Assembly: GCF_000422965.1 (NCBI RefSeq)
Contig: NZ_AUHB01000002.1
Coordinates: 326,119 to 350,118 of the forward strand
Reading direction: 5' to 3'
DNA from: Pleomorphomonas oryzae DSM 16300
GTDB taxonomy: Bacteria > Pseudomonadota > Alphaproteobacteria > Rhizobiales > Pleomorphomonadaceae
DNA: 24,000 nt
The notes beneath the pieces were generated by a model. It had not been told where the DNA came from. It made no database searches and saw only the letters and a program-made list of their open reading frames with translations. The position numbers and the translations under genes were made by a program. This document shows positions 1-19,228 of this stretch, one piece after another (within the stretch, counting starts at the first letter, position 1; every line of letters begins with the position of its first letter).

Positions 1-88
1 CGTCTTTGTCGCAAAAATACTCTCTCAGAACTGCGTGGCGCTGTGCGGCGTCGTCAGGCAAGCAATCAAGCGCGATCTGCAGGACCAT
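1..88 (-). CDS. Partial hypothetical ORF (first 29 codons; continues past the left edge), immediately downstream of the radical SAM gene
   Basis: ATG at 88..86 lies 1 nt after the TGA (92..90) of the upstream gene. The frame stays open to position 1 (MVLQIALDCLPDDAAQRHAVLREYFCDKD...). It is too short to appear in the ORF track and has no recognisable motif. Confidence 0.3.
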   Translation of the reverse strand, partial: MVLQIALDCLPDDAAQRHAVLREYFCDKD

Positions 89-89
89 T

Positions 90-2315
90 TCACGCAGTTC
101 CAGGTTGCTGGCGCCTAGCCGCGTCTAGAGTCTCAATTAAAGCATTGCCCAGCGGCGTCATGCTACACGTTCGTAGAGTCGCGAAGCCGAGTTCAAGATT
201 GCGGTCGGTATCCTTGAGCTGGTTAAGCGCACGCTCACGCATATACTGAGGACCAGCTTCGAGTACATGAGCCCAAAACCGCTTGAGTTCGACGAACACG
301 AAGACGGCGTGCAGGAGGCCTGACGGCGGTCGCAAATCAGCGCGCCAAGGCGAGACAACCCGGGGAGCCGTCGGGCTAACCGTCGGGCCGAAACGCTCCA
401 GCAGATACAGTTTCTGGTGTCGGTGTTCGTGGACGAGTGAATCGGCGAGGTCGTACGGGTCGATCAGTTGTTGGCCCTGTGACACGGAAACAAATAAAGC
501 TCCAGGAACAGAGTCATCGCTGAAGGACACGATCTTCGCCGGATCCGCGGATGGATCGCGGACAAACTGGACAGCTCGACAGGCTCTCATTAGCTCGTCC
601 GCCAATGCTGGCCGCCACCGACGAACGATCTCGAGTGCATCATGAACCAGCGGCATTGCTTCTACAGCGATTCTCTGCGGTTCAAACTCTATCTGGTCGC
701 CAAAGGGTGCGCGCAACCACGCATCGTCCTCTGCTACAGCAAGCCCTCTAGGCCCCACCTTCCGGCTAGCCAACGCGCCCAGATATTCCCCATCTGCACG
801 AAGAGGCTTGCCGTCAACGTCATGTACCATGGAGCCTACGGCATCGGCGAGCATGGCTCGTGTCCAAGCGACGACGCCCGGCTCACTAGCAAGCTGGGTC
901 AAGAAACCCTCGCCACGTTCAATAAGCGCCTTGGCGGCTGCGGCAAGCTCATCACGCCGTAAAGCGTATTCAAGGGCAGAGCGAAAACGGGTTAAATAGG
1001 TCGAACGCGCGTCCTCAATCAGGAACTGCACTGCAGATTCTGAAGTCTCCGCTAGCTCGAAACGAGCCAAATCAAAATCAGGAGGAAGCCGAGAGCTTAA
1101 ATCCTCCATTCCCGCACTTAAGCCATCAGTGAGACGCATTTTGACGTGGGAAATTAGAGCGAATAGCTCGTCGCAGTAGACGGACGGGTTCTTGAAGCTG
1201 TTGCCGTCATAGCGATGTGGGACGGATCCCCCACCGCAGATCTCAACTACCGTGCAACCAAGACACTTGGCGCTAAGGCCGTCTTTTCGCAGAAGTGCTC
1301 TGTGGGCTTCAATCCCAGGAGATGTGGCTACCGCCGAGATAGCCGCATCTAGAACCGTGCCAGATAAGGCTGTGGCGCCGTCCCGCACGATCTTAAGAAC
1401 GTCGAGATCGTGATAGCTGCCGTCGGTTTCGATTGACAGGAGATTTACATCGCCAAAGCCAAAAGCATCCGTCGCAGAAGGCAAGCCGGCGGCGACGTCG
1501 AGCAGTGCCTCAAATGTGCGAACTGGCAGATGCGGATAGCGATCGAACCAAAGATCGAACGCGTGAATCAGCCATTCTTGGTATTGTAGCGGAAGCTGGT
1601 CGCGCCCTGGTGGTTGACGAAGATGATGGGCATCGGGGAGAAGGAAGTCGAGTTTCGGAGGGCGAAGCTCGTCAAAGAACGCAAACAGTTCTTCGGGAGC
1701 CACCGACGGATCAATTACAGCGATCACTCCAGCGAAGACGGCCGGCCGCTGTTGAAGCAACCGATAGCCCGCCATTACGCGATCAAAGCTTGATCGGCCC
1801 TTGTGGCTGGTTCGGTGAAGATCATTAGCCCACCGAGGCCCATCCAGGCTGAGCGAGACGGAAACGTCCGCCCTTTCCAATTCGTCAAGCGTCGTATTGC
1901 TAAGCAACAGTCCGTTAGTCTGCATTGCAAACTCAAGCTTGACTTCAGTTCCAACAGAAGCGCGCAACTCACCCGCGAAACTAACGATAGTATCCACGCC
2001 AGCTAACAGTGGCTCACCGCCATGGAAAACAATGACGGCGCGCTTCAGTGCGGCTTCCTTTGTATATTCAGAAAGGCGCGAGGCAAAAGCTTTCCGCACC
2101 TCAGCCGACATTGTCTTTGGCATAGTGCGCCAGCCTTGATCGGCATGATGGTATACATAGCAATAGTCGCAATCGAGATTGCATCGCGACGCGACTTTTA
2201 GCAGGAAGGAGGTGATCCGAGCTGCCACCAAGGTCAGCTCAAGAGCGATTATGCCGATGGTGCATGCGGTCGTAGCTCGTAATAACCTCACTAGCTTCCG
2301 CCGTCGCAAGGACAC
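90..2315 (-). CDS. Radical SAM/SPASM-domain peptide maturase fused to a C-terminal HExxH domain (FxsB-like architecture)
   Basis: 741-aa ORF starting at GTG 2315. Alternative TTG 2231 or GTG 2228 starts lie just after the stop of the upstream 60-aa ORF. SRCNLDCDYCY is the CxxxCxxC radical SAM motif. CLGCTVVEICGGGSVPHRY...PSVYC is a SPASM/twitch-like Cys cluster. LVHEHRHQKLYLLE is the HExxH motif in the C-terminal third. Confidence 0.85.
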   Translation of the reverse strand: MSLRRRKLVRLLRATTACTIGIIALELTLVAARITSFLLKVASRCNLDCDYCYVYHHADQGWRTMPKTMSAEVRKAFASRLSEYTKEAALKRAVIVFHGGEPLLAGVDTIVSFAGELRASVGTEVKLEFAMQTNGLLLSNTTLDELERADVSVSLSLDGPRWANDLHRTSHKGRSSFDRVMAGYRLLQQRPAVFAGVIAVIDPSVAPEELFAFFDELRPPKLDFLLPDAHHLRQPPGRDQLPLQYQEWLIHAFDLWFDRYPHLPVRTFEALLDVAAGLPSATDAFGFGDVNLLSIETDGSYHDLDVLKIVRDGATALSGTVLDAAISAVATSPGIEAHRALLRKDGLSAKCLGCTVVEICGGGSVPHRYDGNSFKNPSVYCDELFALISHVKMRLTDGLSAGMEDLSSRLPPDFDLARFELAETSESAVQFLIEDARSTYLTRFRSALEYALRRDELAAAAKALIERGEGFLTQLASEPGVVAWTRAMLADAVGSMVHDVDGKPLRADGEYLGALASRKVGPRGLAVAEDDAWLRAPFGDQIEFEPQRIAVEAMPLVHDALEIVRRWRPALADELMRACRAVQFVRDPSADPAKIVSFSDDSVPGALFVSVSQGQQLIDPYDLADSLVHEHRHQKLYLLERFGPTVSPTAPRVVSPWRADLRPPSGLLHAVFVFVELKRFWAHVLEAGPQYMRERALNQLKDTDRNLELGFATLRTCSMTPLGNALIETLDAARRQQPGTA

Positions 2316-2421
2316 GGCTGCGCAGACGCTGGATCGCCGGGTTGACGGATTGGGTCCGGAGCACTGCGGTCTTCAGGGATTCGTCGTGCATCTCTTGAGT
2401 GGGCTGACTTGCAGAGGACAT
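2239..2421 (-). CDS. Candidate RiPP precursor peptide (60 aa) for the adjacent radical SAM maturase
   Basis: The ATG at 2421 is preceded by AGGGAAG (SD-like) about 5 nt upstream. The TGA at 2241..2239 lies 7-10 nt before the alternative TTG/GTG starts of the maturase. The C-terminus is SYDRMHHRHNRS. There is no homology evidence, and the ORF overlaps the longest-ORF start of the maturase. Confidence 0.35.
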   Translation of the reverse strand: MSSASQPTQEMHDESLKTAVLRTQSVNPAIQRLRSRVLATAEASEVITSYDRMHHRHNRS

Positions 2422-2443
2422 GGCAACTTCCCTATACGTGTTT

Positions 2444-2486
2444 TTGACTACTGCAATCTACACAAGAAATCTTGACATTGCAATCT
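2444..2486. repeat. Direct repeat TTGAC(T)A(C)TGCAATCT, two copies
   Basis: TTGACTACTGCAATCT (2444-2459) and TTGACATTGCAATCT (2472-2486). The copies overlap the candidate -10 and -35 elements. Confidence 0.5.
2455..2483 (-). promoter_or_regulatory. Candidate sigma70-type promoter for the precursor/maturase operon
   Basis: On the minus strand, TTGCAA (2483..2478), a 17-nt spacer, then TAGATT (2460..2455), about 35 nt upstream of ATG 2421. It sits at the edge of an AT-rich tract. Confidence 0.25.
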
Positions 2487-2788
2487 CTTCAAAAACTATG
2501 CTTCATAGCAGCAGGCGTCGACAATAGAATTAAATATATACAGTATACTATGTGCATTAATTTGTAAAAAGTGGGCTAATTTATTGCGAATAAAGTGTAG
2601 TATGAAAATTACGACCGTTTGTTTGAATATTGTAATTTTCCAGATGAAAGAATACTTTGAATAAATTAAAGGGGATGGCGGGGGCTGAGTATTTTACATC
2701 ATTATGGCGCAACTCGATTTATTCCATTACGCAGCACTAAGTGGCGGCCTGGATAGCAACACTCTTGTGGGGACAACGGCAAAATCGC

Positions 2789-3391
2789 CTACCACATGCG
2801 AGCCGCCACCGCCCGCTCCTCCGATCCCATAACATGGGTGTAAATGGCGGTGGTGGCGATATCCGCATGCCCAAGCCAACGCTGAATGAGATCCAGCGGG
2901 ACACCACTGCGAACGGCATGCACGCCGAAGCCATGACGGAACCCCTTGGGCATGGCGTGATCACCGCGCACCCCAGCGGCCCTTAGAACCGTTTTGACAA
3001 CCCGCCATGCCGACACCCGGCTCCACAGCCAAAACCGCTCTTGTGGGTCTTCATGACCTTCGGCAAGGCCCTTCAGGGCGCTCAGCAGTTCCGGCGGTGC
3101 CGGAACCTCCCGGACGACGACCGTTCCCCGCTTTTTCAGGCACCGGACAGCCACAATCCCCTCCTCGAACTGAACGTCTTCGGGCCGCAAGGCCAAGGCT
3201 TCGCTAATGCGAAGCCCAAGAAGCATGAGCGTCAGGCAAAAGGCTCGCTCGTCAGAAGGTATTCCCGACAATACCTCAAGAATGCGCCGCCGTTCCTCAG
3301 CATTGATATATTTTCTCCGGCCATTCCGTGAATAAAGGGATGCTCCCGCGCTCCCGGCCTTTTCGCGCACGCTCCCGCTTTCCCTTGTCAT
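2789..3391 (-). CDS. Small tyrosine recombinase/integrase (catalytic domain only, 200 aa)
   Basis: LGLRISEALAL (Arg), HGFRHGFGVHAV (HxxR) and LGHADIATTAIYTHV (His...Tyr) are the classic phage-integrase catalytic motifs. Confidence 0.85.
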   Translation of the reverse strand: MTRESGSVREKAGSAGASLYSRNGRRKYINAEERRRILEVLSGIPSDERAFCLTLMLLGLRISEALALRPEDVQFEEGIVAVRCLKKRGTVVVREVPAPPELLSALKGLAEGHEDPQERFWLWSRVSAWRVVKTVLRAAGVRGDHAMPKGFRHGFGVHAVRSGVPLDLIQRWLGHADIATTAIYTHVMGSEERAVAARMW

Positions 3392-3400
3392 TGACCTGCG

Positions 3401-3435
3401 CCCCTGAAACAGAATTACCCATTCTGTTTCAGGGG
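3401..3435. repeat. Perfect 15-bp inverted repeat with a 5-nt spacer
   Basis: CCCCTGAAACAGAAT (3401-3415), TACCC, ATTCTGTTTCAGGGG (3421-3435). It begins 10 nt upstream of the recombinase start codon (3391). Confidence 0.9.
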
Positions 3436-3598
3436 ATTGGGGTTTGGCGCCTTTTCAATCGGTTCGGCGCACTTCCTTCAAATTATAAGCAAGCTACCCA
3501 CTCATAATCAACAAGTGAATACGCAAATTTCCAGCCAGAAAGACTTTGGGTAATTCCGTTTCACCTCATAAGGCTCTCCAGCGCGCGGCAGGTACGCT

Positions 3599-5990: not shown

Positions 5991-6857
5991 CTATCGCCGG
6001 TAAGGCAAACGGCGGATGTAAGTTTCATCTCGCAGGGCTTGAAGACGCTGTTCCAGAGTCGGATGTGTTGACAGAAGCGTCTTCGGATTGGCGCGGATCA
6101 TCATCCGGGCATAGGCGAGGTATTCCGGGGACGGCTGTGCTCGGTCGGCATGGATGTCCCGAAGGGCCTCCATCATGGCGTCCTTGCCGATAAGGGCCGC
6201 TCCGGTGGCGTCGGCCCAGAACTCCCTTGTCCGGGAGAGGCGCATCAGCATCAGTTCGCCCAGGAACCCGAGGATCCACCGCACGAAGACCTTCCCGCGT
6301 TCCCACCAGAAAAGATACCACGTGAGGGCGTTCTGGAACGAGGTGGCATACTGCATCCGCCGCATGTCCCGGTTGGCCACATGAGCCAGCTCGTGCGCGG
6401 CGATCGCCAGAATGCTGCGCGCCGGTAGTCGGTCCACAAGGCTCTGGCTGAAACTCACCACGGCTTTTTGCGGGGATGAACCCGCCGCGAAGGCGTTCAT
6501 GGCCTGATCCGGGTAGACGCCAACGGATGGGCACGGGATGTCCAGCTTCGTGGCCAGTGCCGCCACCCCTTTTGTCAGCGGATGATCTGCCGGAAGAATC
6601 TTGGTTCGGGTATGGCTGATGACCCGGTCGCGGGACCGGGACACGCCGATCGAGCCGAACACAAAGCCAAAGACCGGCACAAACAACAGCGCCGGGAAGA
6701 AGAACGTCACGACAGCCAGTGTGCCGAAGCCCGTAAGGCCCAAGAGAATGCTGCCTAGGAAAACCCCGAGCCAGGCGCTCAGGATCAAAGCGATTTTCTG
6801 CCCAACGCCGCCGTGGGCAAGGCGGCGGGTATCCAGTTCCGGTAAGGTCGCGCTCAT
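5991..6857 (-). CDS. Membrane-anchored M48-family (HtpX-like) zinc metalloprotease
   Basis: N-terminal hydrophobic helices (ALILSAWLGVFLGSILLGLTGFGTLAVVTFFFPALLFVPVFGFVFGSIGV). AAHELAHVANRD carries HExxH. The start lies 3 nt after the stop of the upstream ATPase gene. Confidence 0.8.
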   Translation of the reverse strand: MSATLPELDTRRLAHGGVGQKIALILSAWLGVFLGSILLGLTGFGTLAVVTFFFPALLFVPVFGFVFGSIGVSRSRDRVISHTRTKILPADHPLTKGVAALATKLDIPCPSVGVYPDQAMNAFAAGSSPQKAVVSFSQSLVDRLPARSILAIAAHELAHVANRDMRRMQYATSFQNALTWYLFWWERGKVFVRWILGFLGELMLMRLSRTREFWADATGAALIGKDAMMEALRDIHADRAQPSPEYLAYARMMIRANPKTLLSTHPTLEQRLQALRDETYIRRLPYRR

Positions 6858-6860
6858 AGC

Positions 6861-8522
6861 TTATTCCCCCACGGTATAAGCCCCGGCCCGTTCCTTCAGC
6901 GACGGGCTCAGGGAATACTCGGTCAGATGCAGCTTGGTCGGCCGAAGCCCGCGCACCTGTAAAATGCTCTGGCGGATGCCCCGGCCCGTCCAGCCTGAAA
7001 GCAGCTCCATCACCTCATCCGGCGTGAGCAGGGGGCGCCCGGTAAGCTCCACGGAGTCGGAAGGTTCTGCGGAAAGATCCCGGTTCCCGGAAAAGGATCG
7101 ATAGGCCACCGTGGTTTGCCCGAGATAGCTTCCCACCAGCCCGCCAGTCATCGGATCGTCGACCCCGAAGAACTGCTTCACGGAGCAATTGAAGAACGGA
7201 CGCCAGGCATCCTGAGGATAATGCTCACGCAGGGCGCCCTCGTCTTGAAGGAAGAACCAGAGGCGCACGCCCGCACCCGCATGGGTGCGAATGGCGTCCC
7301 GGAATTCCGGGTAGGAGCCGAGCGACAGGAATTCATCGAGGACGAAGAGGACGGGGATATCCGGCCGGGTCGGGTTCCGCGTCATCGCGCTCAAGGCGGA
7401 GCGCAGGATGACTTTGAGCCACGGGGCGTAAGGCGTCATGAGATCAAACGGCACATCGAGGTAGACCGTGGCGGGCCGGTCTTTTAGATCCTCGAAATCG
7501 AAATCATGCTGGCTGCATGTCTGGTAGATACCGTCATCGCTCCACAGGGACAGTTTGGCGTTGAGCGTGTCGCGCAAGGTGGGGAGTGCTTTGCCGCGAT
7601 CCTTGCCCAGAACATTGGTGGCCGCTTCCTGAACGCTGGGCATGTCGTCCAGCCCCGCCATGAGGGAGGCCAGAGCCCTGAAGTCATCCAGCGGTGCCGC
7701 CAGAAACCGCCGCACCGTGCCGAGGTGGCGCAGAGGCTCGGGGCACTTTTTCTTCACGTAAAGAATCGTGGCCGTCACGAAGGCCACGGCGTCTTCGATG
7801 AAGAACGCCGATGCACGGGGATCGGCGGGAAACATGAGTTCCGCAAGGGCACGGGCGTCCGATTGGGACCGGACGCGCGCCAGCGGGTTATAGCTGCTCC
7901 GGATAAAGTTCGCCGTTGTGGGGTTGGTGCCGTCATCGAACGGGGCAAGCCGGTAGACGGGGCCGACGTTTTCCCGGCGCCACTTGGACGTGGCCGCGTA
8001 CAGCTCTCCCTTGGGGTCGAGGACAACGGCGCTGCCCTTGTACCGGAGCAGGTTCGGTATGATCGCTGTGACGCCCTTACCCGACCGTGTCGGCGCAAGG
8101 GTGAGCAGATGCCCCTCTTCGTCCCAATGAAAGAAGCGTGGCCCGCTTTGCCCTTGAAAGGTCCCCAGAACGATGGAGCGTGGGTTGTCCAGGGCCTCCC
8201 GTCCCTTGAGTTGGTTCCCAATCTCGCTCTCATCCGCCCACCGGCCCGAGCCGTGGATGGGCGGTGGTGAAGTCAGAAGATCGTCCCGTTCCTTCTGGGC
8301 TTTGCGGGCTCGCTCGGCCCTTTCCAGAACACCCCGGTGGTCTTTGCCTGCCTTGATAGCGTCCACAACGTCTTGAGCTATCTGGGGACCATAAAGGGCA
8401 TCGACCTGGTTCCGGACACGCCTCGCGTGCAGCGTCCGGAAGAACCAGGTGCTCGCTTTGTGATAGTGCTGAAAGTCCCCTAACGTCCGCGACAGGTCGC
8501 CGACCGGATCGAAATCTTTCAT
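6861..8522 (-). CDS. TraG/VirD4-family type IV coupling protein-like ATPase with no N-terminal transmembrane region
   Basis: GSGRWADESEI, Walker A LAPTRSGKGVTAIIPNLL and Walker B PVLFVLDEFLSLG. There is no hydrophobic stretch in the first ~150 aa. Confidence 0.8.
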   Translation of the reverse strand: MKDFDPVGDLSRTLGDFQHYHKASTWFFRTLHARRVRNQVDALYGPQIAQDVVDAIKAGKDHRGVLERAERARKAQKERDDLLTSPPPIHGSGRWADESEIGNQLKGREALDNPRSIVLGTFQGQSGPRFFHWDEEGHLLTLAPTRSGKGVTAIIPNLLRYKGSAVVLDPKGELYAATSKWRRENVGPVYRLAPFDDGTNPTTANFIRSSYNPLARVRSQSDARALAELMFPADPRASAFFIEDAVAFVTATILYVKKKCPEPLRHLGTVRRFLAAPLDDFRALASLMAGLDDMPSVQEAATNVLGKDRGKALPTLRDTLNAKLSLWSDDGIYQTCSQHDFDFEDLKDRPATVYLDVPFDLMTPYAPWLKVILRSALSAMTRNPTRPDIPVLFVLDEFLSLGSYPEFRDAIRTHAGAGVRLWFFLQDEGALREHYPQDAWRPFFNCSVKQFFGVDDPMTGGLVGSYLGQTTVAYRSFSGNRDLSAEPSDSVELTGRPLLTPDEVMELLSGWTGRGIRQSILQVRGLRPTKLHLTEYSLSPSLKERAGAYTVGE

Positions 8523-8639: not shown

Positions 8640-9557
8640 TCAATATCGCCCGTGCCATGATCTCGCTAGCCGGTCGGAGAGACGCTGCTTGGCGGTGCGA
8701 TCAGCGTCAGGGTCGAACTCATCGTCTTCTTCTTCGAATTCAGGCCATAGCATAAGCAGCGCATAGCCTTCCTGCTGATGAAGAACTTGCTCGTAAAGAG
8801 CGGGCGGGCGCTTGCCCCATTCAGATATGAGCCATTGGTCACTAGAAGCTTCCTCAAGCTGGGATATTGCAGTCAATCCGCGTGTGCGCCAATAAATGCA
8901 AGATCGAGGCACTAAGCCGCCTTGCTCCACGCTAAGACGAGGAGCTTTTAGAGCCCGATAAGACCGCAAGACCTTGCCTTCATGGACAACAATCATGGTG
9001 ATAGGCTCACCATGATACAGCGTATAAGCACGCGCGGCGGCGTCTTTACTAACTTCGAAGTCTTTATGAATCCGGAGGACGGTAGCAATATTGGGGTCAC
9101 CGTAGCGTGAAAGGTAAGGGCGCAGCAGCGGCGGCGGCATGAGCATTAACGCGGCAAACTTGTTTGCCTCCACTTCCATGCGCTCATAAGCGTTCTGCTC
9201 AGCTGCCGACCAGAGTCGCATATCGTCGCGAGAGCAAAGGAAAGCATCGTTCTTCACTGGCCGGTGCATTGGGATGAGGAAGTGCCCGAGTTCATGCCCG
9301 ATGGTGAATCTGCGGCGCCCAGCGCGCGCCAGCTTGTTAACAAGGATGACGCCGCGACTACGGTGGGCATCCATCAATAGGCTACCTTCGAAACCTTCCG
9401 CTTCAAGCTCGCGGATTTCGATAATATCGAGTGCAGCTGCCAGCGCCTCGATCGGCACAGGTGGGGCGAGTCCCGGCTCGGCTTTTAGAATTTTGGTCAC
9501 AAGCCCCTCAGGGGAGCCTGTTCCATCCAAATCGAGCCGGGTTATCTGCATGCTCAC
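8640..9557 (-). CDS. ImmA/IrrE-family metallopeptidase with an extra C-terminal domain (305 aa)
   Basis: FTIGHELGHFLIPMH carries HExxH. A 4-nt overlap with the upstream XRE gene is typical of repressor/antirepressor-protease pairs. Confidence 0.85.
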   Translation of the reverse strand: MSMQITRLDLDGTGSPEGLVTKILKAEPGLAPPVPIEALAAALDIIEIRELEAEGFEGSLLMDAHRSRGVILVNKLARAGRRRFTIGHELGHFLIPMHRPVKNDAFLCSRDDMRLWSAAEQNAYERMEVEANKFAALMLMPPPLLRPYLSRYGDPNIATVLRIHKDFEVSKDAAARAYTLYHGEPITMIVVHEGKVLRSYRALKAPRLSVEQGGLVPRSCIYWRTRGLTAISQLEEASSDQWLISEWGKRPPALYEQVLHQQEGYALLMLWPEFEEEDDEFDPDADRTAKQRLSDRLARSWHGRY

Positions 9558-10020: not shown

Positions 10021-10737
10021 ATGACCATTATCGATACGGCGGAAGGCGATCTCGCCAATGATCGCGACCGGTTCACCGCCCAGATTGCCGACGAGACGTT
10101 TGCGTTTCGCGACTTTCACTTCAACGACCGGAGAGTAACGGGTTCGCAGATTGCCGAAGCGTTCGGCGCATATCCGCTGACCGATTATGTGGTCCTCCAT
10201 CACCTTCCGAACCACCAGCTTGAAACGCTTCGGCCGAATGAGACGGCGGACCTGAAAGACGGCGCCCACCTGTTCGTCATCAGGGGCGACGGTACTGACC
10301 GTTTCTTCGTTGACGGCATCCCTCTCGAATGGCCACGCAAGGCTTTGACAGGCGCTAACATCAAATGGTTGGCCGGAAAGGATGAGGATCTTGAGCTGGT
10401 GCTGGAGCGTCAGGATCAGCCAGACAAGGTTATCGGCGATGATGAAGAAGTCCGCATAGGCAACCCAGGTGTTGAAAAGCTCTACACTCGCCCTGCGCAG
10501 GTCAGCATAACCATTGTCGTCAATACTCGGCCGAAGGTCTGGAACAAGAAGCGGATTAGCTTTGAAGAGCTGGTCGCTATCGCGTTTCCGACGCCGCCTC
10601 CTGGTCAGAATATCGTCTACACGATTGGCTATTTTGACGGCCCTCCGAACCGGCCGGAAGGTTCACTAACCGAAGGGGAATCTGTGCGCGTCCGCGACCA
10701 GATGGTGTTCGATGTCAAATTCACTGATAAGTCTTAA
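10021..10737 (+). CDS. Multiubiquitin-type protein with three tandem beta-grasp-like repeats (238 aa)
   Basis: Three repeats of about 65-75 aa. The second reads FFVDGIPLEWPRKALTGANIKWLAGK...EVRIG. The third reads ITIVVNTRPKVWNKKRISFEELVAIAF...ESVRVRDQMVF. An AAAGGG SD-like element precedes the ATG. Recognised by pattern, not by search. Confidence 0.75.
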   Translation: MTIIDTAEGDLANDRDRFTAQIADETFAFRDFHFNDRRVTGSQIAEAFGAYPLTDYVVLHHLPNHQLETLRPNETADLKDGAHLFVIRGDGTDRFFVDGIPLEWPRKALTGANIKWLAGKDEDLELVLERQDQPDKVIGDDEEVRIGNPGVEKLYTRPAQVSITIVVNTRPKVWNKKRISFEELVAIAFPTPPPGQNIVYTIGYFDGPPNRPEGSLTEGESVRVRDQMVFDVKFTDKS

Positions 10738-11878
10738 CCCCGACCTCCAACAGCTCGTGGCAGAGGGCTACGAGCTTGAGATTGTTGCGGACCATCTTGT
10801 TGTCCGCAACGTCCCCTTCGTCAATGCGGAGCGACAGGTTCGGCGCGGCTCACTTATCTCCGAGCTGAACCAGGCGTCCCGAATACCGGGGACGCACGTC
10901 ATCATGTTTGAGGGTGGCATTCCTTGCAACAAGAGCGGGATGCCTCTCAACCAAATCTTCCTTTCTACGGATCAGCAAAAGATCGCTGAGCGCCTCGTGG
11001 CTGATTGTTCGTTCTCGAGCAAACCCCCGGAGGGCTATCCCAATTATTATTTGAAGGTCACGTCATACGTCGCAATTTTGCAGAACGAAGCGCAGGCAAT
11101 TGACCCAAGCGCTACTGCACGGACTTGGCGCGTTATCCCTAACACAGATGCCGACTCCCCCTTTGAATATCTCGATACCGCGTCCAGTCGTGCAGGCACT
11201 ACCTATGCGAGTCGCAAACTAAAGCAGGAAAATGTTGCTATTGTGGGGCTCGGTGGCACAGGATCCTACGTGCTGGATCTCATCGCCAAGACGCCAGTTC
11301 GCAACATTCATCTCTTCGATGGCGACAAGTTCGGCCAACATAATGCGTTTCGCTCGCCCGGCGCGCCGTCACTGGGGCATCTCCAGACCATCCCTTACAA
11401 GGTGGACCATTGGGCGAGCATCTACAGCAATATGCATCGTGGCATTGTCCCGCACCGCGCCTCAATCGATGCCGAGAATGTCCATTTATTGAATGAAATG
11501 GACTTCGTGTTTGTGTGTGCTGATGCTGGTTCAGCAAAGAGTTCTCTCTTCGCGGAACTGGAGCGCGCGGGTGTTCCTTTTATCGATACGGGCATGGGGC
11601 TGGATCTCGCAGGGGACACGCTGCATGGCATGCTCACCGTTACGCTCAGCACGCCCAACAAGCGGGACCATGTTTCTAAACGCGTATCGTTTGCCGGGGA
11701 TGGCCACGAGAATATTTACGCGAAGAATATCCAGGTTGCGGATCTTAACATGCTCAATGCAGCGCTGGCTGTGGTGAGATATAAGAGGTTTCTCGGTTTC
11801 TACGATGATAAACGGCGTGAGCATTTCATGAATTATGTGATTAGCGGCAACACGCTTATCAGCGAGGATCGGACATGA
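10712..11878 (+). CDS. ThiF/E1-like adenylyltransferase with a ~173-aa N-terminal domain of unassigned (possibly E2-like) function
   Basis: NVAIVGLGGTGSYVLDLIAKT is the Rossmann GxGxxG motif. IHLFDGDKFGQHNAFRSPG is the ThiF-type motif. The N-terminal domain contains THVIMFEGGIPCNKSG. It overlaps the upstream gene by 26 nt. Confidence 0.85.
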   Translation: MSNSLISLNPDLQQLVAEGYELEIVADHLVVRNVPFVNAERQVRRGSLISELNQASRIPGTHVIMFEGGIPCNKSGMPLNQIFLSTDQQKIAERLVADCSFSSKPPEGYPNYYLKVTSYVAILQNEAQAIDPSATARTWRVIPNTDADSPFEYLDTASSRAGTTYASRKLKQENVAIVGLGGTGSYVLDLIAKTPVRNIHLFDGDKFGQHNAFRSPGAPSLGHLQTIPYKVDHWASIYSNMHRGIVPHRASIDAENVHLLNEMDFVFVCADAGSAKSSLFAELERAGVPFIDTGMGLDLAGDTLHGMLTVTLSTPNKRDHVSKRVSFAGDGHENIYAKNIQVADLNMLNAALAVVRYKRFLGFYDDKRREHFMNYVISGNTLISEDRT

Positions 11879-12324
11879 GGCCTCCCGTTATTCTGCGTCA
11901 TGTGTTCGTCGATTCCGTGCCTGAACAGATGGAAGATGGAGTTATCTATGTCTCCATTCGCTACCGTACCGTTATGCACCGGTGTTGTTGCGGATGTGGA
12001 AGCGAGGTGGTCACACCACTAAGTCCGACCGATTGGAAACTCACCTTCGATGGAGTGTCGGTGTCGCTGGACCCGTCAGTTGGTAACTGGAGCCTGAATT
12101 GTCGTTCTCACTACTGGATAAAGAACAACAAAGCGGTTTGGGCTGGCGCTTGGTCGGACGAGAAGGTTGCTGCTGGCAGGGTAAACGATAAGCAGGTCAA
12201 GGAGCGTTATTTTGACCGATCCAGTCCAGCCCAGCCATCAGGGCCTATTGCCGCACCTTCGAAGATGACAAATGGATGGACTGCTCGGATCAGATCTCTT
12301 TTTTCCAAGTTTTTGCGACACTAA
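11875..12324 (+). CDS. DUF6527-like Cys-rich protein (149 aa)
   Basis: ATGA overlap with the E1 gene. HRCCCGCGSEVVTPLSPTDWKL...LDPSVGNWSLNCRSHYWI matches the pattern I recall for DUF6527 proteins found beside multiubiquitin and ThiF genes. Confidence 0.7.
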   Translation: MRPPVILRHVFVDSVPEQMEDGVIYVSIRYRTVMHRCCCGCGSEVVTPLSPTDWKLTFDGVSVSLDPSVGNWSLNCRSHYWIKNNKAVWAGAWSDEKVAAGRVNDKQVKERYFDRSSPAQPSGPIAAPSKMTNGWTARIRSLFSKFLRH

Positions 12325-12338
12325 GAGTGAGAGAAAAT

Positions 12339-12809
12339 ATGGGGGACGGTCATAACTTTAGGCAACTAAAGGAGGCAATTCTCGCCCACAGCCAAGCGCA
12401 AGACTGGGAAATTGCACGCAAGGAATGGAGCCTCGTTCGCGTAGCTACCGCCGATGAGCCGGAGACTTGCCCATGCGGGCATTTCCCGATTCTTGAGATT
12501 TGCACCATTGCTAATCAGATAACTGGACACCGGATCGATGTGGGGAACCGCTGCGTTAAGCGGTTTCTAGGCGTGCGTTCGGATCTGATCTTCGCGGCCA
12601 TTAAGCGCATTCAATCGAATATAGAGAAGAGCCTGAATGGTGATGCCATCGTCTTCTTTCATCAATGTGGTGTTCTAAATAATTGGGAATACAGCTTCCT
12701 TCAGGATACGATGCGACTACGACAGTTAACCCTTGCTCAGAAAGTTAAACGGCAGTCAATCAACGAAAAGGTCATTGCCGCCGTCGCGAAGCGAGGATTC
12801 CATGGATAA
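12339..12809 (+). CDS. Hypothetical protein with a CxCGH...C...C putative metal-binding motif (156 aa)
   Basis: Start moved to ATG 12339 (GAGTGAGAG upstream), 14 nt after the previous stop. The motif is ETCPCGHFPILEICTIANQITGHRIDVGNRCVKRF. Confidence 0.6.
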   Translation: MGDGHNFRQLKEAILAHSQAQDWEIARKEWSLVRVATADEPETCPCGHFPILEICTIANQITGHRIDVGNRCVKRFLGVRSDLIFAAIKRIQSNIEKSLNGDAIVFFHQCGVLNNWEYSFLQDTMRLRQLTLAQKVKRQSINEKVIAAVAKRGFHG

Positions 12810-12826
12810 AAGCTTGAGGGAATGGC

Positions 12827-13279
12827 GTGGAAAAAGTAGTGATCGAGGAAATCTTAACAAAATCCCTATCAGATCTCTATGCCGAGGAGGGGATGCTTTT
12901 CAAACTCGATGTCGCGGAGCGTACTATCTGCGCCCGCTTTGCGGCGATCTTACAGCGATATTTCACCAACCATTCGGTTCACGCTGAATACAATCGGCAT
13001 GGTGTTTATCCGAAAGAAATTGACATGCCGAATGCCGATGGCGTGTTGACCTCCAGCCTGGTGAGTCCGGATATTATCGTTCATTTGCCGGGACACGACC
13101 AGGCAAACATCCTTGTTATTGAAGCGAAAAAGACATCGAACCCTATGTCGGACCTTGCCGATCTTTCGAAGCTGGAGCGGATTAAGCATCAAATTGGGTA
13201 TCAGCATGCGGTTTTTCTGCGGCTACCAATTGGCGACGATGCATTGGCTGAGAACGTTCAGATTAGTTGGGTCAGCTAG
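12827..13279 (+). CDS. PD-(D/E)xK nuclease-fold protein (150 aa)
   Basis: GTG start with GAGGGA 7 nt upstream. E31 (VAERTI), HAEYNR, P81-D82 (SPDIIVH) and E99-A-K101 (LVIEAKK) follow the canonical order and spacing of restriction-endonuclease-like motifs. Confidence 0.65.
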   Translation: MEKVVIEEILTKSLSDLYAEEGMLFKLDVAERTICARFAAILQRYFTNHSVHAEYNRHGVYPKEIDMPNADGVLTSSLVSPDIIVHLPGHDQANILVIEAKKTSNPMSDLADLSKLERIKHQIGYQHAVFLRLPIGDDALAENVQISWVS

Positions 13280-13519: not shown

Positions 13520-13822
13520 TCACCACGAAATCACCAGTTCCGGATATTCTCCCGCGCTCAAAGGGCGGCGGATATCCGGCTCGGTGAACGTCGGTCGCCA
13601 GACGTAGTGGAACTCCTCCTCATCAAGCCATTCCTCAAGGGCGCGAGCCGCGTCGGTATCTGACAGGTCGAACGGCAGCTCCTGGACAATGCGGTAATGC
13701 CGATATCCTTGGAACGCGACCTCGTCGATAGCCGTAGCAACGGCTGCCGGGCTGAATATCTTGCCCGCATACTTGTTCCGCAGGTTGGTCGCCATCATGA
13801 AATTTCCCTCGGAGCGTTTCAT
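13520..13822 (-). CDS. Hypothetical acidic protein (100 aa), translationally coupled to the upstream integrase
   Basis: Only the last 100 codons of track ORF 13520..14323 are credible. ATG 13822 overlaps the integrase TGA (ATGA). The sequence begins MKRSEGNFMMATNLRNKYAGK... and contains ...EEWLDEEEFHYVW. Confidence 0.5.
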   Translation of the reverse strand: MKRSEGNFMMATNLRNKYAGKIFSPAAVATAIDEVAFQGYRHYRIVQELPFDLSDTDAARALEEWLDEEEFHYVWRPTFTEPDIRRPLSAGEYPELVISW

Positions 13823-14694
13823 TGGAAGGCGCTCCCCAGGTACACGTCGGTGACTTTCAGGCGTCCATGGCCCAACTCGCCGGAAATATGGTGACGGGCG
13901 GAGCGGTCGGCCTCGCGTTCCTTGGCGGTCATGTCTGCCCAACGCTTGCCGCCAGCCAACGGGCAGGCTTGGCCGGTCAGCACCGCATAGCGCTGCTGGG
14001 CATAGGCGTGTCGAAACCCGTGCGTGTTGCGGATGCCCGCTTTGAGGGTTTGGTACTCGAACCGTTTGAGCTGTTCGACATAAGTGAGTTGCGCGGGAAT
14101 GAGAGAGCCGCGACCTGGTACGAGCCTCACGACGTGCTGAAGCACCTGTCGCTGTTCCAGGGTGGCGATAGGTATCGTGCGCGCCCGCCCTCCCTTGGTC
14201 CAACTGGAATGTAAAGCGATATGGTCGGAGCGGATTGCTACTTGGGGCTGGAACTTCATGGCCTCCTCGCGCCGCAGGCCAAACGCGGTCTGCAACAGGA
14301 TGGAAGCCTTGATATGCGGGCATTCAATGCTCTGGAATTTCGTATGGTCGAGGATCTGCGCGCGGTTGCGCGTGACCTCTCCCCGTTCGGCAACGCCGTA
14401 GGTAGCGTTATCGCGGCTGACGACATTCGGTTTGTTGATCTTTTCGGCCCACCAACGGAGCCAGGTCAGGCGGTTGCGGATGCTGGCGTCCGTCATGTCG
14501 GCATCGAGCCACCTTTCCACCAGCGCCTCAACGTGTTTGGGCTTGAGGGAGGCAGCCGACGGCAATTTATAGCCGAGATCGCTTAAGTCGTCCGCCATCG
14601 CGGTTAATCCACGTCGGCGGTTCGTTTGTGTGCCGTAAGAGCCGTCCTTGTTGCGGTGGCACAGCCGCACCAAGTCCATGGTCAAATCGCCCAT
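13819..14694 (-). CDS. Tyrosine recombinase of the plasmid/prophage integrase-domain type (291 aa)
   Basis: FGLRREEAM (Arg), HGFRHAYAQQRY (HxxR) and GHGRLKVTDVYLG (His...Tyr). N-terminal KPKHVEALVERW...LTWLRWWAEKINKPNVV. AAGGAAG lies 9 nt upstream of the ATG. Confidence 0.8.
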   Translation of the reverse strand: MGDLTMDLVRLCHRNKDGSYGTQTNRRRGLTAMADDLSDLGYKLPSAASLKPKHVEALVERWLDADMTDASIRNRLTWLRWWAEKINKPNVVSRDNATYGVAERGEVTRNRAQILDHTKFQSIECPHIKASILLQTAFGLRREEAMKFQPQVAIRSDHIALHSSWTKGGRARTIPIATLEQRQVLQHVVRLVPGRGSLIPAQLTYVEQLKRFEYQTLKAGIRNTHGFRHAYAQQRYAVLTGQACPLAGGKRWADMTAKEREADRSARHHISGELGHGRLKVTDVYLGSAFQ

Positions 14695-15830: not shown

Positions 15831-16571
15831 ATGAAATCTGCGATTGTGACGGGTGCGTTAAAGCCTGGAATTGGCGCGGCTACCACTAGGCTATTGTTGT
15901 CCGAGAATTATAAGGTATTTGGGACACGAGATGTGGGCTCAGAAATAGAAGAGCTTGGAGTAGATTCCGGTTCACTAGAGATACATGAGGTAGATCATGG
16001 ATCATCAGCCTCAATTGATGAATTTTGCGAGAAATTTCGAGATTTGAAAATCGATTCGTTTGTTAACACTCATATGTTTTTCAATATGGAGAACCAAAGT
16101 GAGTTTGATCACGAGCAATGGGAAAGAAGTATATATGTAAATCTTACCATGCCAAATAGGTTTTTCAGAAATTTGTTTCCGTATCTATCCGACGGATCAA
16201 GCATTGTTACCATATCAAGCACTGAGGCTTTTATAGGTTCTTTCGGAGCCAGTGCTTATGCCGCGTCAAAGGCCGCAATACATAATTTAATTAAAACATG
16301 GGCCAATGTTGGAGGCAAGAAAGGTATTCGTTCAAATGCGATCGCTGCGGGTTGGATCGGCGGGGTAATGGATACTGATGATGTTTTTAACCTATCGCGA
16401 GAAATCACGCCTTTGGGTCGATTGGGTAGTCCGGAGGAAATAGCGAATGTGGTAGCCTTTTTGCTTAGCGACAAGGCATCATTTGTGAATGGATCTGTTA
16501 TCACCGTAGATGGAGGTTATTCCGGGGTGGATAGAATATCTAAGTTTGAATTCGATAGCGTTCAACAATGA
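15831..16571 (+). CDS. Short-chain dehydrogenase/reductase (SDR) family oxidoreductase
   Basis: VTGALKPGIGAAT (TGxxxGxG), SSTEAF...YAASKAA (Ser...YxxxK) and PLGRLGSPEEIANVVAFLLSDKASFVNGSVITVDGG. GGAG lies 8 nt upstream of the ATG. Confidence 0.9.
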   Translation: MKSAIVTGALKPGIGAATTRLLLSENYKVFGTRDVGSEIEELGVDSGSLEIHEVDHGSSASIDEFCEKFRDLKIDSFVNTHMFFNMENQSEFDHEQWERSIYVNLTMPNRFFRNLFPYLSDGSSIVTISSTEAFIGSFGASAYAASKAAIHNLIKTWANVGGKKGIRSNAIAAGWIGGVMDTDDVFNLSREITPLGRLGSPEEIANVVAFLLSDKASFVNGSVITVDGGYSGVDRISKFEFDSVQQ

Positions 16572-16611
16572 CAATTTCAATGTATTGGTCGTCGATTGGG
16601 GGGGGGGCATT

Positions 16612-17520
16612 ATGGCGTGGTGGTGGTCCTTAGTTGTAGCTCTTGTCGAGGTCTTTTTCCTCTTCGGAGTGGGAATATATCTTTCGGCCGATCCTAAGTA
16701 TTCTGCATTGTCGGCCATTTGGATGATCGTCAGCGTCGTCCTTGTAGTTCATAGGCAATTCCTAGTCTTTGAATTTAGGAATGAAATGAAGGAAACCAAA
16801 AAAAACCTGGAAAATACTTTCAACGTGCTGGTCTCCCCAATTAAGAAAGCATCCGAAATTGTCGACCTAAGTGCAAGCTCTGAAATTGGAAGTGTTGGGA
16901 TTATACTGTCTGAGTATTTACGTTTGAAAGAGGAGAGATTATCTCCGGAGAGGACAAGAATAATAGAATCCGCAATAGCTTCATTGAAGTTATTAAATTC
17001 TTCTATGAAGACACCAACTCTTGAGGAGCCTGATTTTTATAGATGGCTGTACCGAGAGTTTGACGATGCTGCGCCGGGATCACGAATACAGATAGTGTCA
17101 ATGGATGAACCTGTTGAATGGAATAATACGATACAAGAACAGACATATTTTGAGAAAAATAAAGCAGCAGCTAAGCGGGGGGTAATGGTTGAGAGGGTAT
17201 TTTTCTTTTCTGCGGAGAGGCTAAAGGAAGCACGGAAAAATAAGTTTATACTAGCTCATGCAGAGGCGAACACGACTCGACTTATTGGGCGCAGGGTGGA
17301 CCGAGAAAGTTTCATTAAATCAGCCCCCACCGCTGTTAAGGATGCGGGGCAGGGGTTCGTATTAATCAATAGCAAATTTGCAATAGTCGATGTGTTCTCC
17401 CCCGATGGTCAGGTTCGCGGATATGTTACTTTTGATCAATCTGAAGTTCAAAAATATAAAGAAACGTTTCAAAAATTCTATGGGTTATCTGCCCCTCTTG
17501 TATTTGACGAGAATATTTAG
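16612..17520 (+). CDS. Membrane-anchored hypothetical protein (302 aa)
   Basis: Start moved to ATG 16612 (MAWWWSLVVALVEVFFLFGVGIYL...). There are two N-terminal hydrophobic helices and a ~230-aa soluble C-terminal region with no motif I recognise. A G10 tract lies 4 nt upstream. Confidence 0.6.
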   Translation: MAWWWSLVVALVEVFFLFGVGIYLSADPKYSALSAIWMIVSVVLVVHRQFLVFEFRNEMKETKKNLENTFNVLVSPIKKASEIVDLSASSEIGSVGIILSEYLRLKEERLSPERTRIIESAIASLKLLNSSMKTPTLEEPDFYRWLYREFDDAAPGSRIQIVSMDEPVEWNNTIQEQTYFEKNKAAAKRGVMVERVFFFSAERLKEARKNKFILAHAEANTTRLIGRRVDRESFIKSAPTAVKDAGQGFVLINSKFAIVDVFSPDGQVRGYVTFDQSEVQKYKETFQKFYGLSAPLVFDENI

Positions 17521-17525
17521 AACGA

Positions 17526-18170
17526 TCATTCTTCCGAGGGGGTATAAATCTGAACGTCCAAATCATCCGGCCTCTTCTGTACCGAATTAGAATCGTAGTA
17601 GTTCATGGGAATAGATATACGCGAAAAATGCCCCCGGAGAGGGGCGACGCGATGCGGAATATTTCGTGCGTCGAAGCAAATAAAGAGGCCTTTCCTTGGC
17701 CATACAACAGCATTTCTTTTTTCGTCGACGTTCCTAAAAACGAGCGCCCCGCCCATTCTTGGATTACATGTGGTACAAAATAGTAGACCCGTTACTGGAT
17801 TGCTGTCCACGTGCCATTCGTACCGAGAGCCAATGCCCTCAATATGATTGATATTTACCGAACTTTTCTGATCGACGGCTACGAATAATTCTTTTCCTTG
17901 GCAGCGGCTCGCGAAGTTGAGAAGAGGCCCCGCGTAGAGAGTCATAAGCCATGGAAGCGAAGCGTTGATGGACGAGCCGTCAACTACATAGACCGGAATT
18001 TTTTGATTTTTCTTCGTCTCACGGCTGGTGGAGCCTTCACCGGTGAGAATAGTCTTTATAGAGTGCTCGCGAATCGTGTGCGAAATTTGGTTATCCCAAT
18101 GGGGTGGTAACAATCCAGCCCCTAATATATCCCAAGAATGATATGGGCGCCATGTCGAGTAGCTATTCAT
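17526..18170 (-). CDS. 2OG-Fe(II) oxygenase superfamily protein (214 aa)
   Basis: YEWHVDSN (HxD), IPHRVAPL (distal His) and SRISIPMN (RxS) in the canonical order. It overlaps the upstream methyltransferase gene by 8 nt. Confidence 0.75.
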   Translation of the reverse strand: MNSYSTWRPYHSWDILGAGLLPPHWDNQISHTIREHSIKTILTGEGSTSRETKKNQKIPVYVVDGSSINASLPWLMTLYAGPLLNFASRCQGKELFVAVDQKSSVNINHIEGIGSRYEWHVDSNPVTGLLFCTTCNPRMGGALVFRNVDEKRNAVVWPRKGLFICFDARNIPHRVAPLRGHFSRISIPMNYYDSNSVQKRPDDLDVQIYTPSEE

Positions 18171-18924
18171 ATTTTACCCCCGAAAAAATAATCTCGTGGC
18201 TGAGCTGTGGGGCGATCTTTGATAGCGCAAGTTCTAGGATTAATGATATTCTAGATTCCCAAACGCCCCCCAAAACACTATGGTATTCGATCTCCTCCAC
18301 GCGAAGACCGGTACCTGGTAGTAAAGCGCTAAAGCGACTTTCACTCATTACCTCGGAATGCACGCCAGTGGAAGTAGTCCTATGTCCTCTCGTCCTATAA
18401 ATCTCTTCGGTCGCTCTCTCCCGGGCTAAAACCCGTCTTAGTGAACTTTCGTTTAGAAACGAGAGAGTGAAATGCCCATTGGGCTTAAGAGCTGTGCCGA
18501 TCGCTGATAAGAGTGCACGCGTGTCAGACATAAATGATGCAGAAGTATTTATGGAAAAAATATAGTCAAATGACTGTGGTTCAAGAAAAGTAAGCGCCGT
18601 AGTGGCGGGGGCGCAAATCAAACGAACACCAGGGTGCCTGGATTTGAATAGGCGGATCATGCCATCCGAAATATCGATGCCAGTATATGTTATACCGCTG
18701 TGCACTGCGCTAATAAGGCGAAACCCAAGACCGCCTCCGCAGCCAATATCGACAATGTTAGTGGCTCTGGAATTTTGGATATGGTCCAACAATAAACGTT
18801 GGGTTTTCCGGTCCTCAGTTCTAGACCAATAATTGTCATATAAAATATCGTATTGATTGGAGATATCATTCCAATAATCTAGGGATTGTGCGGTTATATT
18901 TTCGGATTGGAACTCTGTATCCAT
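18163..18924 (-). CDS. Class I SAM-dependent methyltransferase (253 aa)
   Basis: NIVDIGCGGGLGFRLI is motif I (DxGxGxG), followed by YTGIDISDGM and a typical downstream beta-strand pattern. Confidence 0.85.
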   Translation of the reverse strand: MDTEFQSENITAQSLDYWNDISNQYDILYDNYWSRTEDRKTQRLLLDHIQNSRATNIVDIGCGGGLGFRLISAVHSGITYTGIDISDGMIRLFKSRHPGVRLICAPATTALTFLEPQSFDYIFSINTSASFMSDTRALLSAIGTALKPNGHFTLSFLNESSLRRVLARERATEEIYRTRGHRTTSTGVHSEVMSESRFSALLPGTGLRVEEIEYHSVLGGVWESRISLILELALSKIAPQLSHEIIFSGVKYE

Positions 18925-19228
18925 CGGAATCGGTCCCTAAAACGCGACACATTCTTCTAGAGTTGACATATTAGCTCTAGATCTCAGGTGAGTGAGGGAG
19001 GTATCTCGGTAGTCGCAGTTTGAGGAAGGGTACCTGATGGAAGTGCTCTGAGTCACCGTTTATGGAATCGGAAGTTGTGAAAAAGGTACCTAAACTTTTG
19101 GCGAACGTTTGGAAAAGGCTTGCCAGGGAATTGGCTCGGCAAATTGAAGGGATCGGTTGACGCTGTATTTTTGCACTCCGAACATCTGTACATTGGCCGA
19201 TCGGTATGGTGCGGTAGCTACCTTATTG

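Follow-up and report, generated by a model that had tools for sequence, protein, structure and literature searches.

What a 60-codon open reading frame (ORF) encodes directly upstream of a radical S-adenosylmethionine (SAM) enzyme gene is the question raised by a locus in Pleomorphomonas oryzae DSM 16300, which lies at one end of a 24,000-nt stretch of contig NZ_AUHB01000002.1 (positions 326,119 to 350,118; hereafter, the window). An initial annotation, made from the sequence alone, had proposed that the ORF encodes the precursor of a peptide made by the ribosome and modified post-translationally (RiPP), that three aromatic-x-Arg triplets at its C-terminus are cross-linked by the enzyme encoded downstream (the maturase), and that the peptide would belong to a non-canonical substrate class. 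The features from which this was reasoned, namely the ORF, its Shine-Dalgarno (SD)-like AGGGAAG, the triplets, the spacing between its TGA and the in-frame TTG/GTG codons of the maturase, and a maturase frame that stays open to GTG 2315, are all present in the sequence. We find that nt 2421 to 90 of the reverse strand almost certainly hold the two leading genes of a triceptide RiPP operon of the YhhA/YhhB (ChlA/ChlB) type; feature coordinates are collected in Table 1.

The precursor gene and its conservation

The small ORF, yhhA, runs from an ATG (2421-2419) to a TGA (2241-2239) on the reverse strand and encodes a product of 60 amino acids (aa), MSSASQPTQEMHDESLKTAVLRTQSVNPAIQRLRSRVLATAEASEVITSYDRMHHRHNRS, whose C-terminal end reads SYDRMHHRHNRS. 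The AGGGAAG in front of the ATG would serve as its SD sequence. Among the NCBIfam models, the precursor matched only NF041705 ("YhhA family cyclophane-containing RiPP"), with 59.4 bits (cutoff 36; E 2.7e-16) and across profile positions 3-33 of 33; the FxsA model (TIGR04268) was not matched, and a Pfam search of the precursor gave no match. The precursor also matched chain B of PDB entry 9gmc ("ChlA R3A mutant"; E 1.1e-7). Given that this chain, with the C-terminus ITSYDAMHHRHNRS, carries the engineered R3A substitution, the native ChlA core is identical to the core ITSYDRMHHRHNRS in the window.

A search of a collection of 5.8 billion proteins returned 253 homologues of the precursor (52-88 aa), many of which carry the NCBI/UniRef name "YhhA family cyclophane-containing RiPP", with hosts including Rhizobium, Ensifer, Hansschlegelia, Prosthecodimorpha, Bradyrhizobium, Pseudomonas, Xenophilus, Halomonas, and Planctobacterium. 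In an alignment of 27 sequences, 18 residues are invariant, including I47-H55, H57, R59, and S60, and the tail ITSYDRMHHRH[N/S]RS is unaltered in 26, that of the window among them. In the leader of the same alignment, N27, A29, Q31, R32, L33, and R36 are invariant and P28, V37, and L38 are conserved in at least 90% of sequences, forming a motif that is presumably the recognition sequence for the maturase, while the ~20 N-terminal residues are freely variable. This combination of a free N-terminal stretch, a recognition motif, and a fixed core is the signature of a RiPP precursor and rules out a chance ORF, and homology identifies the 60-codon ORF as a genuine precursor gene of the curated YhhA/ChlA family, as had first been proposed.

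For gene context, we collected 78 loci with relatives of the enzyme (one genome per species), searched them with a hidden Markov model (HMM) built from the YhhA alignment, and remapped the enzyme with tblastn. Similar small ORFs upstream of homologous maturases, for which the initial annotation had suggested looking, were found on the same strand at all 54 loci with a fused maturase (enzymes 40-79% identical to that of the window; Pseudomonadota, one planctomycete, and one Methylococcaceae metagenome-assembled genome). The distance from the end of the YhhA ORF to the start of maturase homology is ~7-50 nt throughout and at most 25 nt in 51 of the 54. The tail ITSYDRMHHRH[N/S]R[S/T] occurs at 50 of these loci, and the remaining four have variants in a single triplet; the variants noted were ...YDRQYHRHNRS (Planctomycetaceae), ...YDRMHNRHNRS (Methylococcaceae), and ...YDRMHHKHNRS, with variant precursors lying upstream of the maturase at loci L048, L050, L055, L057, L059, and L060. 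Related precursors are present at more distant loci as well (Chloroflexota and Verrucomicrobiota; enzymes 36-39% identical), where four-triplet cores were seen (NYSRMHHRHARSHTRA and NYSRMHNRHNRSHNRG), and Lys can take the place of the third triplet residue (RYSRMHHRHNKS...). The HMM search gave no YhhA-like ORF at any of the 17 actinobacterial FxsB-type loci.

The maturase and its start codon

The gene downstream of yhhA encodes a fusion of two enzyme domains. Residues 6-369 matched NF041707 (cyclophane-forming radical SAM/SPASM maturase YhhB) at 488.1 bits (cutoff 445) and TIGR04269 (FxsB subfamily) at 487.3 bits (cutoff 370), and residues 529-701 matched TIGR04267 (alpha-ketoglutarate (αKG)-HExxH-type peptide β-hydroxylase) at 133.6 bits (cutoff 40). 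All catalytic motifs are intact, comprising a CxxxCxxC at residues 17-24 (nt 2160-2183; C17, C21, and C24), four SPASM cysteines (C323, C326, C332, and C353), and a HEHRH (HExxH) at residues 601-605 (nt 417-431). The cluster and SPASM cysteines align with those of ChlB in PDB 9gm3, and the N-terminal half matched the ChlB radical SAM domain (PDB 9gm3/9gmc; E 1.1e-137) with 54% identity over 367 ungapped positions. The C-terminal half (residues 386-704) matched ChlH of Chlorogloeopsis sp. (PDB 8s5f; E 7e-77), and the nearest relatives of the enzyme, in Hansschlegelia and Methylopila, are 78-79% identical. We have therefore assigned the gene, by its profile and structure matches, as a three-residue-cyclophane radical SAM maturase with a fused β-hydroxylase domain. 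The initial annotation had treated the gene product as a maturase and had overlooked the C-terminal αKG-HExxH domain. When the precursor, the maturase, and the product of the third gene were scanned with PADLOC, only the maturase gave a result, and that was generic radical SAM (viperin) similarity.

Two in-frame candidate start codons, TTG (2231-2229) and GTG (2228-2226), lie 7 and 10 nt past the yhhA TGA. The enzyme frame is also open upstream to GTG 2315, the start given in the ORF list, and the small ORF could be read as an overlap artefact, with the maturase translated from GTG 2315 and the 60-codon frame left untranslated. The frame does stay open for 63 codons above the first cluster cysteine and offers GTG or TTG codons at -44, -42, and -36 relative to it. 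However, this extension is not conserved, given that the GTG at -44 (2315) has no counterpart in the other loci and that in the three nearest relatives (78-79% identical) the sole candidate is a TTG at -16, with an in-frame stop 19 codons upstream. Since such a stop lies merely 17-24 codons upstream in many relatives, a long N-terminal extension is excluded. A start codon 16 or 15 codons 5' of the first cluster cysteine was found at 50 of the 54 loci (18-26 in the other four), and the window has its TTG at -16 and its GTG at -15. If residues are numbered from the TTG, the matches to ChlB and the NCBIfam profiles also set in at residues 4-6, and the 253 homologues of the small ORF, its invariant core, and its curated family model speak against an artefact. 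In RefSeq relatives, yhhA is followed by a yhhB (711-718 aa) that starts no more than 16 nt past the precursor stop or overlaps it by 4 nt. Taken over these loci, the comparison places the enzyme start at TTG 2231 or GTG 2228 and not at GTG 2315, in line with the initial annotation; the overlap artefact, to which we give next to no probability, is effectively refuted.

Gene callers used for metagenome and Logan data often start the maturase at an internal ATG ~36 codons in, past the CxxxCxxC, which gives products of 678-688 aa without the cluster ligands and a false gap of ~115 nt behind yhhA (for example, L001:818, L080:8298, L083:8301, and L089:9301); NCBI calls start no more than 16 nt from the stop.

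Family placement and predicted chemistry

The precursor-maturase pair belongs to the already known, curated, and structurally solved YhhA/YhhB (ChlA/ChlB) triceptide family. The suggestion of a non-canonical substrate class fails because His/Tyr triplets define this family: His/Tyr-x-Arg is its canonical substrate, and the core in the window equals both the family consensus and native ChlA. The missing FxSxx terminus, which had been taken as a departure, is a property of the separate FxsA/FxsB branch. The enzyme does exceed the cutoff of TIGR04269, the FxsB family, with 487 bits, and the pair could on that account be seen as an FxsA/FxsB-type system with an aberrant precursor, hence a new class of FxsB substrate. 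However, TIGR04269 models a domain at the subfamily level and takes in YhhB, and the threshold of NF041707, an equivalog model, is exceeded too; the precursor has no FxSxx terminus and its match is to YhhA, and actinobacterial FxsB enzymes are only 39-44% identical and have no YhhA-like ORF beside them at any of the 17 loci. We consider this reading extremely improbable. A decaying, non-functional remnant on a mobile element would fit the short tyrosine recombinase that adjoins the pair, the wealth of mobile and defence genes in the region, the GC content of the window (54%), and the position of the remaining operon beyond the window. Both ORFs are nonetheless full length with catalytic motifs intact, the core is the consensus, and the third gene starts where expected, with 68% identity over the first 25 aligned residues, which makes a remnant very improbable.

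Among characterised systems, ChlA/ChlB of Chlorogloeopsis sp. (Morishita et al., Nat Chem 2024; Ruel et al., JACS 2025) shares with the window the two-gene layout, the fusion architecture, and the sequence likeness of both enzyme domains given above. Its host is a cyanobacterium, whereas that of the window is an alphaproteobacterium, and the leaders are only loosely alike, with 19 of 37 aligned positions identical between the precursors, 13 of which fall in the 14-residue core. Both proteins of the window score above the YhhA and YhhB cutoffs of the YhhA/YhhB/YhhC system (Sugiyama et al., JACS 2022; NF041705, NF041707, and NF041706), with which the triplet chemistry (Tyr-C3 or His-C2 to Arg-Cβ) is shared. 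That system differs by YhhC, a stand-alone 2-oxoglutarate (2OG)-Fe(II) oxygenase, which is absent within the window; the corresponding operon slot lies beyond it, and YhhC accompanies the relatives at some Pseudomonas loci only. The 2OG-Fe(II) oxygenase at 17526-18170 was considered as a displaced YhhC and rejected, as it does not match NF041706.

The actinobacterial FxsA/FxsB systems (TIGR04268/TIGR04269) employ a maturase of the same subfamily, often with a HExxH partner, and form three-residue cyclophanes near the C-terminus, but they have a precursor of another family, whereas the window precursor ends in HNRS without FxSxx-COOH. XyeB/XncB, GrrM/OscB, HaaB, and HtkB also make Ω1-X2-X3 aromatic-to-Cβ cross-links with SPASM radical SAM enzymes, but on other motifs (Trp/Phe-x-Asn/Arg/Ser, HAA, and HTK) and without a fused hydroxylase; the window enzyme scored 148 bits against the XyeB model (cutoff 450) and 103 bits against the GrrM model (cutoff 310).

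The present analysis determined to which family the pair belongs, that its motifs and domains are intact, how its genes are ordered, where the enzyme starts, and how well the locus is conserved; for the chemistry we rely on published work on orthologues whose core is identical. According to papers that summarise this work, the Arg-Cβ is linked by YhhB to Tyr-C3 and to His-C2 (PMC11002830, citing Sugiyama et al., JACS 2022), YhhB makes an HNR cyclophane, and YDR is the native motif of ChlB (PMC11499958). Such papers also describe the fused HExxH domain as an αKG-dependent non-haem iron enzyme that β-hydroxylates precursor Asp and His, a step for which the cyclophanes must already be in place (PMC12636437, citing Morishita et al., Nat Chem 2024, and Ruel et al., JACS 2025), and the separate 2OG oxygenase YhhC as installing erythro-β-hydroxy-Asp on YhhA (PMC12186529).

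By analogy with these orthologues, yhhA would give a 60-aa precursor with a variable N-terminus, the leader motif NPAIQRLRxRVL, and the invariant core, and a 713-aa bifunctional enzyme would be translated from TTG 2231, 7 nt past the yhhA stop. Its radical SAM/SPASM domain would abstract a Cβ hydrogen from each Arg, whose Cβ would then be joined to the aromatic ring two residues upstream, at Tyr-C3 in YDR and at His-C2 in HHR and HNR, to leave three consecutive three-residue cyclophanes. Published results for orthologues that share this core (PMC11002830 and PMC11499958) agree with the initial choice of YDR, HHR, and HNR as cross-link sites and suggest Tyr/His-to-Arg Cβ cyclophanes on the window peptide. 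The αKG/Fe(II) HExxH domain may then β-hydroxylate the cyclised peptide, the order reported for ChlB (PMC12636437), with Asp and His as the residues reported for that enzyme.

Several points weigh against the YhhA/YhhB assignment. The chemistry is cited second-hand through summarising papers, the operon past the first 29 codons of its third gene lies beyond the window, and expression of this yhhA/yhhB copy is assumed. A scan of positions 1-3500 found no sigma-70 consensus match on the reverse strand, so that the promoter was not located, and no recognisable SD sequence precedes the TTG/GTG start of the maturase. Given that no SD was seen before the TTG, we infer that translation of the maturase is probably coupled to that of yhhA; the scan of the same positions found no terminator between the two genes. 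No data at hand contradict the YhhA/YhhB assignment. Both genes can be named automatically by the NCBI annotation pipeline, and the core has the same sequence as one crystallised with its enzyme. The sequence-only reasoning of the initial annotation was sound on the layout, the triplet sites, and the start codon. The YhhA peptide is widespread and strictly conserved, and novelty could lie in the accessory genes and in the mobile or defence neighbourhoods.

Downstream genes and the surrounding region

The third gene of the operon begins with an ATG at 88, 1 nt past the maturase TGA, and its N-terminus is 68% identical to that of the gene after yhhB in Hansschlegelia. Among relatives, an orthologue (for example, L081:10339-11337) follows the maturase directly at all 54 loci and is present, though in a rearranged order, at three of the seven distant loci. 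A profile of 11 third-gene sequences matched PDB 8brp ("Peptide arginase") with an E of 8.5e-9, and the motifs HVDDHxDL and DxDxFxNRYDGDSD are invariant. Weak matches to Pfam UPF0489/PF12640 were seen in eight of the 11 family members, and PF12640 is the peptide arginase family (PMC12703449). In the relatives, the fourth gene (~160-200 aa) is annotated as a GNAT protein in RefSeq, with weak matches to acetyltransferase Pfam models, and the fifth encodes a family-A glycosyltransferase in most alphaproteobacteria or YhhC (NF041706) in some Pseudomonas (examples in L090:2194-4511, L088:12308-14416, and most of loci L002-L054). Given the arginase-like third gene, the GNAT gene, and the family-A glycosyltransferase gene, the mature product may be more heavily tailored than by cyclophanes and hydroxyls. 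Among the papers accessible to our literature search, none links an arginase-like gene to the YhhA operon; the primary triceptide papers may discuss it.

Table 1. Features of the yhhA/yhhB locus and of its surroundings, with positions counted from the first nucleotide of the window
Feature	Position (nt)	Strand	Remarks
Third operon gene, first 29 codons; ~330-aa peptide-arginase-like protein	1..88	-	Continues past the window edge
Fused yhhB/chlB-type maturase gene, 713 aa	90..2231	-	Start at TTG 2231 or GTG 2228; NF041707, TIGR04269, TIGR04267, and PDB matches
αKG-HExxH peptide β-hydroxylase domain, residues 529-701	129..647	-	TIGR04267, E 7.3e-39
Radical SAM/SPASM cyclophane-synthase domain, residues 6-369	1125..2216	-	HMM and PDB matches
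yhhA/chlA-type precursor gene	2239..2421	-	60 aa plus stop; NF041705, homologues, alignment, and PDB 9gmc
Core peptide ITSYDRMHHRHNRS, residues 47-60	2242..2283	-	Three Ω-x-R triplets, directly before the stop
Triplet HNR (H57-N58-R59)	2245-2253	-	Read from the sequence
Triplet HHR (H54-H55-R56)	2254-2262	-	Read from the sequence
Triplet YDR (Y50-D51-R52)	2266-2274	-	Read from the sequence
Leader motif NPAIQRLRSRVL, residues 27-38 (NPAIQRLRxRVL)	2308..2343	-	Conserved in the 27-sequence alignment
AT-rich intergenic region, 367 nt, 38% GC	2422..2788	-	Upstream of yhhA
SD-like AGGGAAG	2427..2433	-	5 nt 5' of the yhhA ATG; read from the sequence
Tyrosine recombinase, 200 aa, catalytic domain only	2789-3391	-	Pfam Phage_integrase, E 4e-23
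TraG/VirD4-type type IV secretion system coupling protein (553 aa), then M48 (HtpX-like) peptidase	5991-8522	-	Coupling protein E 3e-57
IrrE/M78 peptidase	8640-9557	-	PADLOC CapP model, E 3e-51; divergent from the ubiquitin-like operon
Ubiquitin-like conjugation operon	10021-13279	+	Multi_ubiq, DUF6791-ThiF E1-like, DUF6527, unassigned 177-aa ORF, PD-Lambda-3_A-like
Integrase-family genes	13819-14694 and 19712-21082	-	On both sides of the low-GC stretch
Low-GC stretch	16001-19000		41-45% GC against 54% for the window
2OG-Fe(II) oxygenase	17526-18170		Within the low-GC stretch; sole 2OG oxygenase of the window; no NCBIfam match
Class I methyltransferase	18163-18924		Within the low-GC stretch

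In seven relatives, the genes around the operon are for the most part mobile or defence-like. Pseudomonas has BREX, RadC, YqaJ, DUF932, and an integrase; Hansschlegelia has AbiJ/Abi_C; Prosthecodimorpha has ParE/RHH with a methylase and a resolvase; Allosphingosinicella has HEPN proteins and an M78 peptidase; Planctobacterium has PIN-TPR, a UvrD helicase, Abi_C, and TniQ/TniB (Tn7-like); and Ensifer has nod genes with a Tn3 remnant. The window itself holds an operon that resembles, by its domain content, bacterial ubiquitination-like anti-phage operons, with three Multi_ubiq repeats, a DUF6791-ThiF protein (NF004805, 492 bits), and a PD-Lambda-3_A-like protein (E 3e-26). Next to it lies an M78 peptidase gene that matches CapP, the protease half of the CapH/CapP-type regulator pair of defence operons. 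Given the type IV secretion system coupling protein and the M48 peptidase, the region appears to belong to an integrative conjugative element or a plasmid, and three integrase-family genes are found in the window.

No bioactivity of triceptides is yet known (PMC12257519). By guilt by association with its mobile and defence-island setting, the operon could have a role in phage defence or inter-strain conflict. That such a role would be combined with a triceptide more tailored than the known YhhB/ChlB products, for example one in which a single Arg loses its guanidino group by hydrolysis to give ornithine before the peptide is acylated or glycosylated, we regard as unlikely.

Upstream of yhhA, the AT-rich intergenic region is presumably the promoter region of the operon, and no Rfam family, whether of riboswitches or of leader RNAs upstream of yhhA, scored up to its gathering threshold in any part of the window. 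The adjacent recombinase, whose gene lies directly upstream of this region, weakly matches FimB/FimE-type invertase models. An invertible promoter switch at 2422-2788 operated by this recombinase was considered and rejected, as the flanks of the region carry no convincing inverted repeats and the recombinase is not kept beside yhhA in relatives. Just upstream of the recombinase start, at 3401-3435, lies a perfect palindrome with 15-nt arms (CCCCTGAAACAGAAT / ATTCTGTTTCAGGGG), with a related copy (79% complementary) ~100 nt away at 3535-3563; the palindrome could be a terminator or a recombination site.

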